From a phage: a DNA stretch of 64,000 bases. The notes beneath the pieces are model-generated. The model saw nothing but the letters and a program-made list of their open reading frames with translations. It had not been told where the DNA came from and did not search any database. The stretch is from sequence record PZ452579.1; one strand, written 5' to 3'. The stretch's first letter is position 1. The number at the start of each line of letters is the position of its first letter. Both the position numbers and the translations under genes were made by a program. Shown here one piece after another: positions 3,720 to 55,625 of this stretch.

Positions 3720-4002
3720 GAGAAATAATTCCTTGGTAAGCCCAATAAGGAGGATTAACAGAATCCTCACCAGAGTTTTCTTCAGGAAAATAAACCTGGA
3801 TAACAAATCCAGATGCATCAAAGGTAAAATAAACCGTAGGTAGTTCACCTAACAATTCGGCACGAGCATTAATTTCTTCGAGATCTCGTTCACGTCCAGC
3901 CCAAAAACTAGGATTTAGATTACATTCGTAAAAATAATAGTCATTACCGAACATATCAAAACCCTTCCAACTCTCTACCACATACCGCTCAAAACTAATC
4001 AT
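3685..4002 (-). CDS. hypothetical protein (105 aa)
   Basis: ORF MISFERYVVESWKGF...; overlaps start of glutaredoxin-like gene. Confidence 0.5.
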   Translation of the reverse strand: MISFERYVVESWKGFDMFGNDYYFYECNLNPSFWAGRERDLEEINARAELLGELPTVYFTFDASGFVIQVYFPEENSGEDSVNPPYWAYQGIISRGTKLELKEQD

Positions 4003-4004
4003 AA

Positions 4005-4220
4005 TTAAGCCTTTTTATCAAGAACAGAATTCAGCTTGTTAGTAATTTTATCCAAACGTTCATTGAATTCGCTGGAGGATAAACCCTTTTCCGGAGAAAT
4101 TAAACTAATCACGAAAAATACACCAGTAAAAGGAATAAGAAAAATAACTCCAACTGCCATAAACAAAAAGAACGTTACAGTTGTAAGAAAATCAGCTAAA
4201 CCTTTACGAAATTTATACAT
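4005..4220 (-). CDS. small membrane protein (71 aa)
   Basis: Long hydrophobic stretch TVTFFLFMAVGVIFLIPFTGVFFVISLI. Confidence 0.55.
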   Translation of the reverse strand: MYKFRKGLADFLTTVTFFLFMAVGVIFLIPFTGVFFVISLISPEKGLSSSEFNERLDKITNKLNSVLDKKA

Positions 4221-4330
4221 ATTTACCCTTAATTAACTAAGCATTGATAAGCACTAAACTATATTGCGAATAAAATTCTGGACCAAAATGAAAAATCATA
4301 TCATTTATAGTATCCATAATGTAATTCAAT

Positions 4331-4801
4331 TTAATCATGTTTCCACACCCCATCGGTATTTGACCAAAGTCTCTGATTATCTGATCCTCGCCACAGTTTT
4401 TTGGTCGGAAGATTTTTCTCATACTTCCCATCAATAATAACATCAACATATTTAAGCATTTCTAGTTGTTTAATATCTTCAAACTTATATCCTGTCCACA
4501 ACCAAATGCTTTTATTGGGATAAAGATTTTTTACTGTTTGAACAATGCAATGAATGACGTCTCGATTGTCAGGATAGAGAGGGTCTCCTCCGGTTATAGT
4601 CAATCCTTCTATATAATCATTATTCAAATATTCAATCAATTGTTCTAGTGTTTCACCGGTGAATGGAATACCATTTCTAGCATTCCATGTTGATTTATTA
4701 TAACACCCTTCGCATTTATGCAAACAACCTGTAACGAAAAGAACGACCCTGCAACCAGGGCCATTCACAAAATCGCAAGGATAAAATCTATCATAATTCA
4801 T
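4331..4801 (-). CDS. nrdG: anaerobic ribonucleotide reductase activating protein (radical SAM)
   Basis: CxxxCxxC motif (CLHKCEGC) near N-terminus; 156 aa; directly downstream of nrdD with 4-nt overlap. Confidence 0.9.
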   Translation of the reverse strand: MNYDRFYPCDFVNGPGCRVVLFVTGCLHKCEGCYNKSTWNARNGIPFTGETLEQLIEYLNNDYIEGLTITGGDPLYPDNRDVIHCIVQTVKNLYPNKSIWLWTGYKFEDIKQLEMLKYVDVIIDGKYEKNLPTKKLWRGSDNQRLWSNTDGVWKHD

Positions 4802-12803: not shown

Positions 12804-12926
12804 TTATTTCAGTAAAGTAACTTCCGAGATTTCTTCCCAACCATCTTTATCAGTTGAAATAAAATCTGCTACATAAAGAGCCGTACGTAATGATACATTG
12901 CGAAGACGAGATACGTTAGCCTTCAT
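12804..12926 (-). CDS. possible 40-aa ORF coupled to ATPase stop (ATGA)
   Basis: MKANVSRLRNVSLRTALYVADFISTDKDGWEEISEVTLLK; below track threshold. Confidence 0.2.
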   Translation of the reverse strand: MKANVSRLRNVSLRTALYVADFISTDKDGWEEISEVTLLK

Positions 12927-13762
12927 CCAGGACAATGCTTTATACGTTTCTGCATCATGTCAGTAGATAATATTACATCTTCAACTCGAACCATAATCTC
13001 TTCATTAGAGTGTACTCCAAGGTCCAAATACACTGAACGAGATACTAAAGCTTGAAGGTGGGGAGCAAGTTTCGAACCGCGTTCTAACTCTTTATCGATA
13101 TCAACGTTTGTAATGAAAACAATAGTACCTTCAAACTCAAATTCTTTATCAATACCCTTATCATCGAGATAAGATGACGCAGTGCTCCAACAAACTTTGC
13201 GTTTATCTCCGGTATCTAATGCTGCTTTAAGAAGGTTCAAGATGTCCATATCTGAGAATACGTCAACGTCGTCGATTAAGAGAACGCTGTCTGCATCACG
13301 GTTGAGCCAAAGTTGTTCGTAAAGGCCAATACCAGAGATTTTACCATTAATACTTTTGTATTTGATGAAACCATTATCATTAGCATTATTAAGTGCTTTA
13401 TCCAGAGAATACGTCTTACCAATACCGGCTGCACCTGAAATAATGAGTGAACGAATTTTGCCATCGATAATACCATTCGTCATCATGTTCATTACTTTAA
13501 AGCGTTTGTTGATACGAGTTTTCATATCTTCAGTGCTTTCAACAACTGCAACTGGTGATGTCTCAACTCCTTCCATTACGATGTCTGATTTGAAGACCCA
13601 TACTCCACGTTCAGAACCATCAATCATAACGAAAATTTTACCGTCACCTAAGTGGGAACATTCAGGATTAAGCTTTGCCGGGAACCATGTCTTTGTGGCA
13701 ACATAAGAACCAGAGATTTCGTTATTACGATAGATACCTTTTTTGATTTGAACGTTGAACAT
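12923..13762 (-). CDS. P-loop NTPase (Walker A GAAGIGKT, Walker B VLLIDDVD)
   Basis: Start at ATG (MFNVQIKK...) after SD GGAG; ~110-aa N-terminal extension before P-loop. Confidence 0.65.
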   Translation of the reverse strand: MFNVQIKKGIYRNNEISGSYVATKTWFPAKLNPECSHLGDGKIFVMIDGSERGVWVFKSDIVMEGVETSPVAVVESTEDMKTRINKRFKVMNMMTNGIIDGKIRSLIISGAAGIGKTYSLDKALNNANDNGFIKYKSINGKISGIGLYEQLWLNRDADSVLLIDDVDVFSDMDILNLLKAALDTGDKRKVCWSTASSYLDDKGIDKEFEFEGTIVFITNVDIDKELERGSKLAPHLQALVSRSVYLDLGVHSNEEIMVRVEDVILSTDMMQKRIKHCPG

Positions 13763-13832: not shown

Positions 13833-14051
13833 TTATTTGCGACGAGATTTTTTGGTAAGAGGTTGAAAGAACACTGCTTTACCAGCAGGAGTCAAAGTGA
13901 CTCGTAATGCATTACCGATTCCCAAGGATGCTTTAACAAGACCTTTAGATTTCAGTTCACCGAATGCTTGACGTTGGTCTGCATCACGAGTGTTAACCAT
14001 AAGACCTTTATCACCAGCTTCACGAATCATTTCTAACATTTTGGTTTTCAT
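13833..14051 (-). CDS. hypothetical small basic protein (72 aa)
   Basis: ORF flanked by promoter cassettes on both sides. Confidence 0.5.
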   Translation of the reverse strand: MKTKMLEMIREAGDKGLMVNTRDADQRQAFGELKSKGLVKASLGIGNALRVTLTPAGKAVFFQPLTKKSRRK

Positions 14052-14081: not shown

Positions 14082-14110
14082 ATAATAACATATCCTAAAA
14101 GCATGTACAC
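14082..14110 (-). promoter_or_regulatory. early promoter cassette (PeSL-like)
   Basis: -35 GTGTAC, 17 nt, -10 TATTAT on minus strand. Confidence 0.5.
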
Positions 14111-14120
14111 TACTTTTTAA

Positions 14121-14156
14121 AAATATTTTGACCCCCTAAAGGGCCCGAAGGCCCTT
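14121..14156 (-). terminator. hairpin GGGCC-UUCG-GGCCC plus U-rich tail
   Basis: Directly after stop of 14158..15156; same hairpin recurs at 55610. Confidence 0.5.
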
Positions 14157-14157
14157 A

Positions 14158-15156
14158 TCATTTATAATACGAATTGTGGTTTTCTAAGTAGACTTGCTCA
14201 AGGAAATCATCCCAGAAACTCATATCTACTTTTTGTTGCATACCGTTCTTAGCGGCTTGTTCTGATGCTTGTTCAACTTGTTCAACTTGTTCAACGATAT
14301 CTTCTAGGAATTCTTGCACAGTTTTAAACGTATGTTTACCAAGCTTAACATCGAGAATAAATGGAGCATCCTGAAGTGGGTAAACCAGGTCGCCGGTTTT
14401 GTAAATTTCCAATAGTTGAAGTCCACCACGGCATGCATGACTCAATGCTTTCCAATCAATACCTTCATTGGCTTCTGCCTTACGAGCACGTTCACCGTAG
14501 TTCTCTTCAAGTTTAACCAGGATGGCATTGAACTCTTTGTTAGTTAACGTATCTTGGAATTTACGGTCCAACAGACTATAGAATGTTTGCTTACCTGTTT
14601 TCTCGTTTTCAGTTTCAACCCATGAAGCAAATTCACCTATAGGCAGAACATTCTTCATATGTGATAAACGAATTACTGCACCGTTATCAAAGTATTGTCC
14701 CCATTCATTAGAACGTTTAAGGGCTTGACGAAGAACAGCCAGTCGAGAACCCTTGACACCGTATTTAGAAGCTTGCTTACGGACATACCCTAAATAAGAT
14801 TTCATGTTAGTGGTATAGAAACGAGACCTGTTATCTTGAATATACTTCCATACATCAGGCAAATCAGATTTAACTACTAGACTTTGTGGAGTGTGAAGCA
14901 TATCTAATGCGACGGTTTCACCATCCGCAGCTAGTTTAAAGAAATATTTGAGACTATACAACTCATGGTCTACGTCGTCTTTTGTGTTCTTAGAAGATGT
15001 GTTATTCGTGTTCTTGCTCATGTGTTCTTTAACGTTACCGGTCAAGATATCACGAGCATGAGGGACATAAATTTCTTTAAAATCGACGTCAGATTCAGGA
15101 GTAGACGTTCCATAAAGGTGGCTACCAAAGTAGCCTTTCATAATTGTTTTCATCAT
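14158..15156 (-). CDS. nucleotidyltransferase-fold protein (Pol-beta superfamily motif GS-x9-SDVDF)
   Basis: N-terminal GYFGSHLYGTSTPESDVDF; 332 aa; ATG overlaps upstream stop (ATGA). Confidence 0.65.
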   Translation of the reverse strand: MMKTIMKGYFGSHLYGTSTPESDVDFKEIYVPHARDILTGNVKEHMSKNTNNTSSKNTKDDVDHELYSLKYFFKLAADGETVALDMLHTPQSLVVKSDLPDVWKYIQDNRSRFYTTNMKSYLGYVRKQASKYGVKGSRLAVLRQALKRSNEWGQYFDNGAVIRLSHMKNVLPIGEFASWVETENEKTGKQTFYSLLDRKFQDTLTNKEFNAILVKLEENYGERARKAEANEGIDWKALSHACRGGLQLLEIYKTGDLVYPLQDAPFILDVKLGKHTFKTVQEFLEDIVEQVEQVEQASEQAAKNGMQQKVDMSFWDDFLEQVYLENHNSYYK

Positions 15157-15626
15157 TTAGCCTTATATTCAATAACAGGACACACTTTAGCTTTACGAGC
15201 TTTTAAAAATTCAACGATAATCGATTTCTTGGGTTGAATAGGCTCAAGTCCATTTTTGATTCGTTCTTCGTTTTGTACAATGATCTCAATTTCTTTATTG
15301 AGCTTTCGGTCGTTATATTTGTCTAACAACCAGGAAGGACCAATTACCGCCCCGACAGCAATAAGAACCATTACTGATAATGTTAAAATGCCTATACCAA
15401 TTGAAGCCGGAACTAATGTCCATAGACTACTAAAGACAAAGAATTTAATTAAAATTTCTTGGCCAATGATTGCGGCACCTGCTAAAGTTGCAAATCCAAC
15501 AATTGAAACAGCTAATACCGGGAGAAACGTTTTCCAAAAATAAGCACACAACGTTTTCGGACGATTCCATGTACTATTGAACGCGGCATAAATTTTAAAG
15601 TGCCAAGAGTTTTCATTGATAATCAT
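15153..15626 (-). CDS. multi-pass membrane protein (157 aa)
   Basis: Two or three long hydrophobic segments; coupled to downstream NTase-fold gene. Confidence 0.6.
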   Translation of the reverse strand: MIINENSWHFKIYAAFNSTWNRPKTLCAYFWKTFLPVLAVSIVGFATLAGAAIIGQEILIKFFVFSSLWTLVPASIGIGILTLSVMVLIAVGAVIGPSWLLDKYNDRKLNKEIEIIVQNEERIKNGLEPIQPKKSIIVEFLKARKAKVCPVIEYKAK

Positions 15627-15635
15627 AATAATTCC

Positions 15636-16166
15636 TTATTTCAAAGTTGGGATAATAGAATCAAGATAAGCTTTAAGAGCAACTGCTTCATCTTTGTCTA
15701 ATGTAATGATATGTTGACGAAGGTCATCAATTTGGCGAATAACTACGACATCACCGTCTTCATAAGAAGGATTAACTCCCAGGACTGTTGTATAGTCAGG
15801 GCGGTCCTGATTTGTAATAAAAGCATTACGGCATTTAGCCCATTGAAGTTTGGCCTTTTTGGCTGTTTCAGATTCCATGAATTCTTTCACCTTAGCGACA
15901 AATGTTTTCCAATTATTAATAGAAAAACATTCATCTTCGGTTTCGATATTAACCCCACTATAAAGTCCGTGATAAAAACGAACTTGAAGGTCTTCATCAA
16001 TGTTAATTACAGATGCATGACCGGGTGGATTGAGTTTCAAAATCTTGTCTAGTTCCATAGGAAGAATAGTAACAACATCATCTTCTTGCGTCAGAACGTA
16101 CGCATAACCACGTTTTTCGATACATAAATCACCAAACAACTCAGTCGTTTCAATTACAGTTTTCAT
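15636..16166 (-). CDS. hypothetical protein (176 aa)
   Basis: Start at ATG (MKTVIETTELF...); track M1 is TTG. Confidence 0.55.
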   Translation of the reverse strand: MKTVIETTELFGDLCIEKRGYAYVLTQEDDVVTILPMELDKILKLNPPGHASVINIDEDLQVRFYHGLYSGVNIETEDECFSINNWKTFVAKVKEFMESETAKKAKLQWAKCRNAFITNQDRPDYTTVLGVNPSYEDGDVVVIRQIDDLRQHIITLDKDEAVALKAYLDSIIPTLK

Positions 16167-16278
16167 ATTATTCACCAATTAAAGTTTCAACAAAATTCAC
16201 CAAATCATTCTGACGAGCATCAATCTGATTTCTATAAAAATTAAATAAGATCCATCAATTTATTAGCTTGTTCACAGG

Positions 16279-16389
16279 TCATTTTACCATACTCGCTTCA
16301 ATAAGATTCATTACACCATTTACCATGTTATACGTAAACATCGGATAATTGTATTGTACTACAACATAAGCAATAAGCAAAAGTTTCAT
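16279..16389 (-). CDS. possible hydrophobic micropeptide (36 aa)
   Basis: MKLLLIAYVVVQYNYPMFTYNMVNGVMNLIEASMVK with SD GGAG; sits between a promoter cassette and the next gene. Confidence 0.25.
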   Translation of the reverse strand: MKLLLIAYVVVQYNYPMFTYNMVNGVMNLIEASMVK

Positions 16390-16417: not shown

Positions 16418-16447
16418 ACTATAACATAGTCCTACCAAGATGTAAAC
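16418..16447 (-). promoter_or_regulatory. early promoter cassette (PeSL-like; perfect dyad GGTAGGACTA/TAGTCCTACC)
   Basis: -35 GTTTAC, 18 nt, -10 TATAGT on minus strand. Confidence 0.55.
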
Positions 16448-34134: not shown

Positions 34135-34211
<77 letters not shown>

Positions 34212-34217
34212 AATATA

Positions 34218-34291
34218 TGACCCAGACCAGATTCGAACTGGTAACCTTTCCCTTATGAGGGGACTGCTGCTAACCATTGAGCTACAGGGCC
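34218..34291 (-). tRNA. tRNA with CAU anticodon (Ile2-like or Met)
   Basis: 5' end and T-arm resemble E. coli tRNA-Ile2; anticodon loop CTCATAA; imperfect acceptor and D stems. Confidence 0.55.
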
Positions 34292-55607: not shown

Positions 55608-55625
55608 AAGGGCCTTCGGGCCCTA
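55608..55625 (+). terminator. hairpin GGGCC-UUCG-GGCCC
   Basis: Between wac stop and gene 13 start; weak U-tract. Confidence 0.4.

Follow-up and report, generated by a model that had tools for sequence, protein, structure and literature searches.

A RlaP-family nucleotidyltransferase and a recurrent membrane-protein neighbour in an RB69-like phage, with a possible role in tRNA repair

RlaP proteins, such as PfRlaP and PaRlaP, are bacterial nucleotidyltransferases (NTases) encoded in RtcB or RNA-ligase operons. Carruthers, Fatma and Huang (bioRxiv 10.64898/2025.12.29.696909) have recently reported that two Pseudomonas RlaP enzymes add one or two nucleoside monophosphates, or deoxynucleoside monophosphates, to RNA 3'-OH ends, that Mn2+ serves best, and that DNA and protein are rejected as substrates. 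In the same study RlaP favoured the 5' half of a nicked tRNA mimic and partly restored aminoacylation of a tRNA missing one anticodon-loop nucleotide. T4 NrdC.11 was found inside the sequence network of the family (PF10127), its function being called unknown. Here we have analyzed the nrdC.11 locus in a stretch of phage DNA of 64,000 nucleotides (record PZ452579.1, hereafter the window). Three tightly packed open reading frames (ORFs), all on the minus strand, encode MobD.1 (176 residues), the membrane protein ORF104c (157 residues) and NrdC.11 (332 residues). We propose that NrdC.11, an NTase assigned by sequence to the RlaP family, may act on RNA ends, and that ORF104c may be an accessory partner of such enzymes.

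A second described system is the T4 pathway of polynucleotide kinase-phosphatase (Pnkp, gene pseT) and RNA ligase 1 (Rnl1, gene rnlA), directed against PrrC-type anticodon nucleases. Its presumed purpose, to undo the cleavage of tRNA by the host, would be the same. Pnkp and Rnl1 heal and seal ends, whereas RlaP would add missing nucleotides, a step that is absent from the classical pathway. From an earlier comparative analysis of jumbo phages it was predicted that their RlaP replaces, before ligation, the nucleotides taken by RloC-type nucleases (PMC7824862). No membrane component of the Pnkp/Rnl1 pathway is described in the literature that we examined. In a third system, Hailong (Tan et al. 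2025), an NTase gene comes after the gene of a transmembrane protein, as described in a review (PMC13434031). According to that review, HalB is a bacterial protein-primed poly-dA synthase of 217 residues, and HalA is a channel made of four subunits with a crown on the cytoplasmic side.

The window comes from an RB69-like Mosigvirus (Straboviridae), a T4-type phage. Over a 2.6-kb region its DNA is 95–97% identical to that of Escherichia phages ECO111 5-P and AV109; for RB69 the figure is 94.6%. The gene order is the same in RB69, where the RefSeq equivalents are RB69p105 (mobD.1), RB69p104 ('membrane protein') and RB69p103 (nrdC.11, 'nucleotidyltransferase'). All three have strong family matches and are therefore not chance ORFs. 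A first-pass annotation of the window had stated that function could not be assigned. This is outdated, as the genes have long been annotated in RB69 and the in-vitro activity of RlaP has been published. The genes and the NTase family are thus known, and the link to a membrane partner is modestly novel. What is added here is a family assignment for which the active site and the fold have been checked, the rejection of the idea of a signalling module, and a lead on the membrane partner.

NrdC.11 and the RlaP family

NrdC.11 matches the Pfam RlaP family (PF10127) with 47.9 bits (cut-off 23, E 1.8e-12), the match spanning residues 7–136 and profile positions 23–143 of 249. It also matches phrog_388 ('nucleotidyltransferase') at E 1e-124. 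The protein and T4 NrdC.11 share 77% identity from end to end, and with Mosigvirus proteins the identity is 98%. Its homologues are found in 1573 phage records, from coliphages to T4-like phages of Aeromonas, Acinetobacter and Vibrio. Precomputed PF10127 matches are on record for homologues, and an exhaustive search returned 741 clusters (50% identity) with E < 1e-30. Many deposited phage genomes, as well as UniRef, label this NTase 'thioredoxin'. The label is wrong, having evidently been copied from the gene name nrdC.11, and this widespread mis-annotation is corrected here. Over 1500 of the T4-type phage genomes sequenced carry nrdC.11, and its placement in the RlaP family provides a concrete functional hypothesis.

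The first-pass annotation had recognized a Pol-beta-superfamily motif of the form G-S-x9-D-x-D. The motif holds, within residues 8–26 (GYFGSHLYGTSTPESDVDF), with a spacing of ten residues instead of nine (G11-S12-x10-D23-x-D25). We aligned 79 sequences, that is the window protein and 78 representatives at 35–52% identity. G11, S12, S22, D23, D25, D63, Y132, K236, R243 and G273 are invariant. An AlphaFold model built on this alignment reached a mean predicted local distance difference test score (pLDDT) of 93.1 and a predicted template modelling (TM) score of 0.84. In the model the GS turn follows strand 3–10, D23 and D25 lie at the start of strand 24–31, and the invariant D63, which provides the third catalytic acid that had been left to a structure model, is located on strand 62–68. 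The modelled strand order and the three carboxylates are those of the Pol-beta arrangement. The model comprises an NTase domain (residues 1–115), a long helix (119–155), a beta-hairpin insert (177–201), a helical domain (206–303) and a terminal helix (312–331). Both the PF10127 match and the fold model are thus in line with the earlier proposal of a Pol-beta-fold NTase in a lytic T4-type phage, and among the families suggested for it (CD-NTase, MNT, RlaP-like) the RlaP-like one is borne out. The T4 homologue, NrdC.11, has no known function at odds with this assignment.

Searches of the Protein Data Bank (PDB) by sequence, with the single protein and with the 79-sequence profile, found no solved relative of NrdC.11. 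With Foldseek, the nearest solved folds in the PDB are all NTases, kanamycin ANT(4') and Hailong HalB being found at E ~1e-3. The crystal structure of PfRlaP is not one of these fold matches, and the version of the PDB that was searched apparently does not include it. With bacterial RlaP, NrdC.11 shares the above-threshold PF10127 match, the GS...DxD signature with a third Asp and the predicted restoration of nucleotides before ligation. The modelled order of an N-terminal NTase domain and a helical C-terminal region resembles that of RlaP. NrdC.11 differs in its size (~330 residues), in its beta-hairpin insert and in that no RtcB, RtcA or ligase gene lies beside its own.

It is worth considering that the nucleotide acceptor might be something other than an RNA end, for instance a host or phage protein (AMPylation or UMPylation), a small molecule such as those modified by aminoglycoside or lincosamide NTases, or a DNA end, the similarity to RlaP being limited to a shared catalytic core. 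The profile match covers only the N-terminal 130 residues, and the C-terminal domain with its beta-hairpin insert has no characterised counterpart. Foldseek matches include kanamycin, spectinomycin and lincosamide NTases and glutamine-synthetase adenylyltransferase. However, the antibiotic-NTase matches are weak (TM score 0.25–0.35, 9–12% identity), and the PF10127 score amounts to double the curated threshold of the family. In addition, neither DNA nor protein was accepted by the RlaP enzymes that have been assayed, and the gene neighbourhoods of the membrane partner point to RNA ends. A substrate of another kind appears unlikely to us.

Other assignments were tried and rejected. A CD-NTase of the CBASS type (cGAS/DncV-like) found no match with PADLOC, in Pfam or by fold, and the signalling or effector module that the first-pass annotation had considered is dropped with it. 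The MNT partner of HEPN-MNT (type VII toxin-antitoxin), also considered at that stage, fails with an MntA match of 13 bits against a cut-off of 60. A known anti-phage defence gene was likewise rejected, on the basis of PADLOC, which gave no match to defence models, of NCBIfam and of the fold comparison.

The similarity to T4 and RB69 NrdC.11 (phrog_388) extends over the full length, and the genes share the position between nrdC.10 and mobD.1 and a UUCG hairpin past the stop codon. The protein of the window has one extra VEQ repeat, in a triple tandem (GTTGAACAA, VEQVEQVEQ), and its gene has the membrane gene upstream instead of the mobD endonuclease of T4. Relatives have 328–329 residues, so that the repeat appears to be a minor in-frame variation in length within a surface helix.

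The membrane protein ORF104c and its gene neighbourhoods

ORF104c matches phrog_944 (E 6.7e-51) and no Pfam family. Its Kyte-Doolittle profile has a single hydrophobic block (residues 26–100) with positively charged flanks. In an AlphaFold model based on 58 homologues (pLDDT 82), long helices are found at residues 26–62 and 68–124, and strands at 2–4 and 153–155. Hydropathy and model indicate a two-helix transmembrane hairpin of the inner membrane. The first-pass description as a membrane protein is thus retained, the many passes that it implied are not. As the N-terminal strand is modelled beside the C-terminal one, the conserved termini would be on the same, presumably cytoplasmic, side. These conserved ends consist of an N-terminal M.IN.NSWH(Y)+ and LCxYFW and a basic C-terminal Y(I/L)KAKKxKxCPxIEF; S7, W8, H9, L26, C27, Y29, K147, C149 and P150 are invariant in the 58 homologues. 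Homologues are present in 1251 phage records, some of them outside the T4-like phages. With tblastn against a 2.3-Gb database, full-length matches were obtained in PaP1 (E 6e-8) and Aes012 (E 1e-6). These matches and the invariant motifs at both ends show the family to be genuine. The SWH, LCxYFW and KAKKxKxCP motifs are shared by the window protein with members of the family from Pakpunavirus, ICP1, Aeromonas phages and jumbo phages. No solved lookalike was found with Foldseek in the PDB, the best match having an E value of only 0.87.

To describe the genetic context of this family, loci were taken from annotated phages, IMG/VR and metagenome contigs, and the proteins were clustered by BLAST (at least 40% identity over at least 80% of the length), giving 36 clusters. 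In 14 of them, all from T4-like phages, RlaP/NrdC.11 is encoded within 1.3 kb downstream, often with a 4-nucleotide overlap. In Pakpunavirus (PaP1 and relatives), an Rnl1-type RNA ligase (PF09511) lies 12 nucleotides downstream in eight of eight loci. In Aeromonas T4-like phages the membrane gene is found at another genomic site, between gene 32 and frd, with an RNA ligase of the PF21189+PF09414 architecture 83–91 nucleotides downstream; nrdC.11 is located elsewhere in these phages and has no copy of the membrane gene there. On an environmental contig of 210 kb, an HAD_PNKP phosphatase, an AAA_33 kinase, a small ORF and an Rnl1-type ligase follow 10 nucleotides downstream, and a second ligase is found 3.8 kb upstream. 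In one further lineage a ligase gene precedes the membrane gene by 1.3 kb. For the remaining 18 clusters no gene of RNA repair could be recognised within 4 kb; the neighbours include a PurZ-like adenylosuccinate synthetase, primase, NAD-salvage genes, thioredoxin and unknowns.

Homologues of both Pnkp and Rnl1 thus adjoin the membrane-protein family in other phages. Since members of the family are repeatedly encoded, in phages that are not related, directly ahead of enzymes that heal or seal RNA ends, ORF104c most likely works with such enzymes. These neighbourhoods suggest an accessory role in RNA repair. That this membrane-protein family may belong with the phage RNA-repair enzymes is what is new here, as a moderately supported lead. 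We found no report of a link between phrog_944 and RNA-repair genes in the literature examined, which did not cover Burroughs and Aravind 2016. A membrane protein recurrently paired with four families of RNA-repair enzymes may indicate where, or how, phage RNA repair is organised in the cell.

The same observations could also mean that NrdC.11 is a RlaP-type RNA-end NTase for which the membrane protein and MobD.1 are mere neighbours in a dense early cluster, with ORF104c having an unrelated role in host takeover or exclusion and the ATGA overlap resulting from genome compaction. Stop/start overlaps are common across T4-type genomes. T4 retains nrdC.11 without the membrane gene, half of the clusters of the membrane family are without an RNA-repair neighbour, and in T4-like phages of Klebsiella, Salmonella and Acinetobacter the two genes are set apart by between one and three small, unrelated ORFs. 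On the other hand, four independent immediate juxtapositions involve four enzyme families of one pathway (RlaP, Rnl1, PF09414 ligase and Pnkp), and the single copy in the Aeromonas phages has moved off nrdC.11 and is now beside a ligase. With at most about four RNA-repair genes among 100–300 genes per genome, a rough estimate gives ~0.3 such juxtapositions expected by chance in ~18 lineages, versus the four seen. We regard mere proximity as a less than probable explanation.

Another view would be that the pair forms a module akin to Hailong, or serves to counter such a module. In the manner of HalB, NrdC.11 would then make an oligodeoxyadenylate or other oligonucleotide, either to gate the membrane protein or, by renewing the inhibitory signal of the host, to keep a Hailong-type channel shut during infection. 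The gene arrangement, a transmembrane gene and then an NTase gene, is the same as that given in the review (PMC13434031). However, NrdC.11 has no sequence similarity to Hailong proteins. It is assigned to RlaP by sequence, HMMER found no HalB match even with the profile at E values up to 10, and PADLOC gave no match. The first rank of HalB among the fold matches may only reflect that the PfRlaP structure is not one of them. A HalA-like membrane channel was rejected for ORF104c by Foldseek against the PDB, HalB entries included: its model, that of a very small protein, found neither HalA nor another channel. In addition, many phages have a member of the membrane family beside ligases or Pnkp but no NTase with it, which does not fit a toxin gated by an NTase product. 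We consider a Hailong-type function very improbable.

Some further observations were made at these loci. The large ORFs beside the membrane gene in loci L047, L060 and L028 were examined as divergent RlaP or ligase genes, and all were negative. The ORFs between the membrane gene and RlaP in the phages of Klebsiella, Salmonella and Acinetobacter type have no Pfam family. The 159.8-kb T4-like genome L081 (IMG/VR) carries two paralogues of the membrane family, 2 kb apart (1596–2078 and 4001–4399), one upstream of RlaP and the other upstream of a protein of 284 residues, phrog_18109. In two environmental contigs a PurZ-like adenylosuccinate synthetase (2-aminoadenine genome pathway) is encoded just upstream of the membrane gene: it abuts it in L051 (2904–4429) and is ~0.3 kb away in L067 (2538–4405).

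A possible role in tRNA repair

By analogy with its family, the most likely activity of NrdC.11 is the addition of nucleotides to RNA 3' ends in tRNA repair. We can predict that its substrate would most likely be a tRNA whose anticodon loop has been cut, and then trimmed, by a host nuclease. NrdC.11 would add back the nucleotides. The phage's own Pnkp (pseT) and RNA ligase 1 (rnlA), the genes of which lie in another part of the genome, would then reseal a full-length tRNA, so that translation could continue during infection. RB69 encodes both pseT and rnlA, ~80 kb from nrdC.11. ORF104c would work with the end-healing and end-sealing enzymes as a dispensable accessory factor, possibly as a membrane tether, as a docking site for RNA or enzyme, or as a protective factor. 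If true, this could account for the survival of these phages in the face of nucleases that excise a nucleotide and thereby thwart the classical repair by Pnkp and Rnl1.

Several points weigh against this proposal. The C-terminal 200 residues of NrdC.11, the probable seat of substrate specificity, match nothing known. Activity data on RlaP cover two Pseudomonas enzymes, and in the sequence network of the family T4 NrdC.11 falls in cluster 5 versus 1a for the assayed enzymes (bioRxiv 10.64898/2025.12.29.696909). There is no RNA ligase or Pnkp gene near nrdC.11 in the 64-kb window. The ligase neighbourhood that characterises RlaP is thus not seen directly for nrdC.11, and the link is indirect, through the membrane family that lies beside ligases or Pnkp in other phages. 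To these points are added the half of the phrog_944 clusters that are without an RNA-repair gene within 4 kb, and the neighbourhood enrichment, which is a rough estimate rather than a genome-wide permutation test.

The situation in T4 also has to be considered. This phage is without the membrane gene, has the mobD homing endonuclease in its place and has kept nrdC.11, and its nrdC.11–mobD.3 region tolerates deletion (PMC9825161). Both facts count against the proposal, and they imply that neither protein strictly depends on the other. Deletability is, on the other hand, as expected of a conditional counter-defence gene. In RB69, RB14, RB51 and Shfl2 the membrane gene is upstream of nrdC.11. All things considered, we hold with moderate confidence the reading of NrdC.11 as a RlaP-type RNA-end NTase in tRNA repair with the membrane protein as accessory partner.

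A more speculative extension is that ORF104c is an unrecognised component of RNA repair, which would recruit or regulate the adjacent enzyme (RlaP, Rnl1, Rnl2/5-like ligase or Pnkp) through its conserved cytoplasmic face, with the N-terminal SWH and LCxYFW motifs and the KAKKxKxCP tail. Repair of tRNA against anticodon nucleases of the host would then be organised at the inner membrane, and NrdC.11 would provide the missing nucleotide-restoring step against RloC-type 'repair-defying' nucleases. We put this forward tentatively, as an idea that is rather less than probable.

Transcription unit and neighbouring genes

The coordinates of the features are collected in Table 1. The three coupled ORFs noted in the first-pass annotation are present as described, and so is the ATGA in which the start codon of the NTase gene and the TGA stop codon of the membrane-protein gene overlap (AAATGATG). 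Nine nucleotides separate the TAA of the 176-residue ORF from the start of the 157-residue one, with an AAGGA ribosome-binding site inside. The early-type promoter-like site upstream is likely the start of the transcription unit, and from there to the stop codon of the NTase gene the minus strand has no second promoter-like site. The locus is thus one early transcription unit, composed of the promoter, the ORF of 36 residues, a truncated tk.1, mobD.1, ORF104c, nrdC.11 and the UUCG hairpin. A promoter of the early type fits a counter-defence role.

The hairpin, also seen at first pass as closing the unit, marks its end, as a terminator or as a stabiliser of the mRNA 3' end. In this phage it is without a clean U-run, and its energy has a z-score versus shuffled sequences of only -1.26. 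At the same position T4 and Shfl2 have a compensated stem, GGGAGCC-UUCG-GGCUCCC, followed by a T-run, which argues for the hairpin as a conserved RNA element, and a terminator is annotated at this position in related records. The next promoter-like site starts the unit of ORF102c and then nrdC.10, and sets the boundary.

Table 1. Positions of the features of the nrdC.11 locus and of other elements in the window
Feature	Position	Strand	Remarks
Early-type sigma-70 promoter-like site	16418..16446	-	TTTACA-17 nucleotides-TATAGT with upstream TG; RB69 sequence identical
Hydrophobic leader ORF	16279..16389	-	36 residues; 5' of the tk.1 remnant
tk.1 homologue remnant	~16167-16278	-	shortened by a 65-nucleotide deletion versus RB69
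Premature end of tk.1 homologue	~16230-16245	-	MTCEQANKLMDLI*
mobD.1 ORF	15636..16166	-	176 residues; mechanical ORF list extends to TTG at 16178
Membrane-protein ORF (RB69 ORF104c)	15153..15626	-	157 residues
Hydrophobic core of ORF104c, two predicted transmembrane segments	15327..15551	-	residues 26-100; Kyte-Doolittle, DSSP of model
NTase ORF nrdC.11	14158..15156	-	332 residues
NTase catalytic signature	14968..15126	-	G11-S12 15121-15126; D23 15088-15090; D25 15082-15084; D63 14968-14970
Triple tandem repeat in nrdC.11	14262..14288	-	RB69 has three residues fewer (VDQVEH), 332 versus 329 residues
UUCG-tetraloop hairpin	14139..14156	-	AAGGGCC-UUCG-GGCCCUU, 1 base past the NTase stop; -13.4 kcal/mol
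Next promoter-like site	14082..14109	-	TGTACA-16 nucleotides-TATTAT with TG
ORF102c of RB69	13833-14051	-	72 residues; phrog_6001
nrdC.10	12804-13762	-	phrog_1250
ORF of the lost NrdC.10 C-terminus	12804..12935		
UUCG hairpin	55609	+	AGGGCC-TTCG-GGCCCT
UUCG hairpin	49211	+	GGAGAC-TTCG-GTCTCC
tRNA-Arg(TCT) and tRNA-Met(CAT)	34135-34291	-	two adjoining phage genes

The 176-residue ORF, first described as an unknown protein, is MobD.1 of the y05I family. It matches PF24449 (139.3 bits, E 7e-41) and PF24448 (70.5 bits, E 2e-19), both above their cut-offs, as well as phrog_1502. Pfam designates the y05I-like family as 'putative transcription factor'. The gene is co-transcribed with the other two, but nothing places MobD.1 in a functional module with them. 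The order of genes at the locus is conserved with RB69 and Shfl2. In Shfl2 (L004, 1437–2498) and in RB14-type phages, two tandem y05I/MobD.1 paralogues are found upstream of the membrane gene, and in T4 the mobD HNH endonuclease replaces one y05I paralogue together with the membrane gene.

The premature end of the tk.1 homologue (RB69p106) was found by comparison with locus L001 (7358–7537). The RefSeq name 'helicase loader' for RB69 tk.1 is an apparent annotation error, the protein having only 59 residues. On the other side of the locus, ORF102c has its own promoter-like site, lies between nrdC.11 and nrdC.10 and is absent from T4. NrdC.10 is an AAA-like P-loop protein with 99% identity to RB69 NrdC.10 over 273 residues. 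Deletions of 22 nucleotides and of 1 nucleotide shift its frame, leaving 279 versus 312 residues, and the lost C-terminus forms a separate ORF. This frameshift is either a true pseudogenisation or an assembly error.

Two further perfect UUCG hairpins are present in the window, the one at 55609 being identical to that following nrdC.11. They are probably further terminator or mRNA-stabilising elements of the T4 type. Finally, the window carries two adjoining phage tRNA genes, for tRNA-Arg(TCT) and tRNA-Met(CAT).

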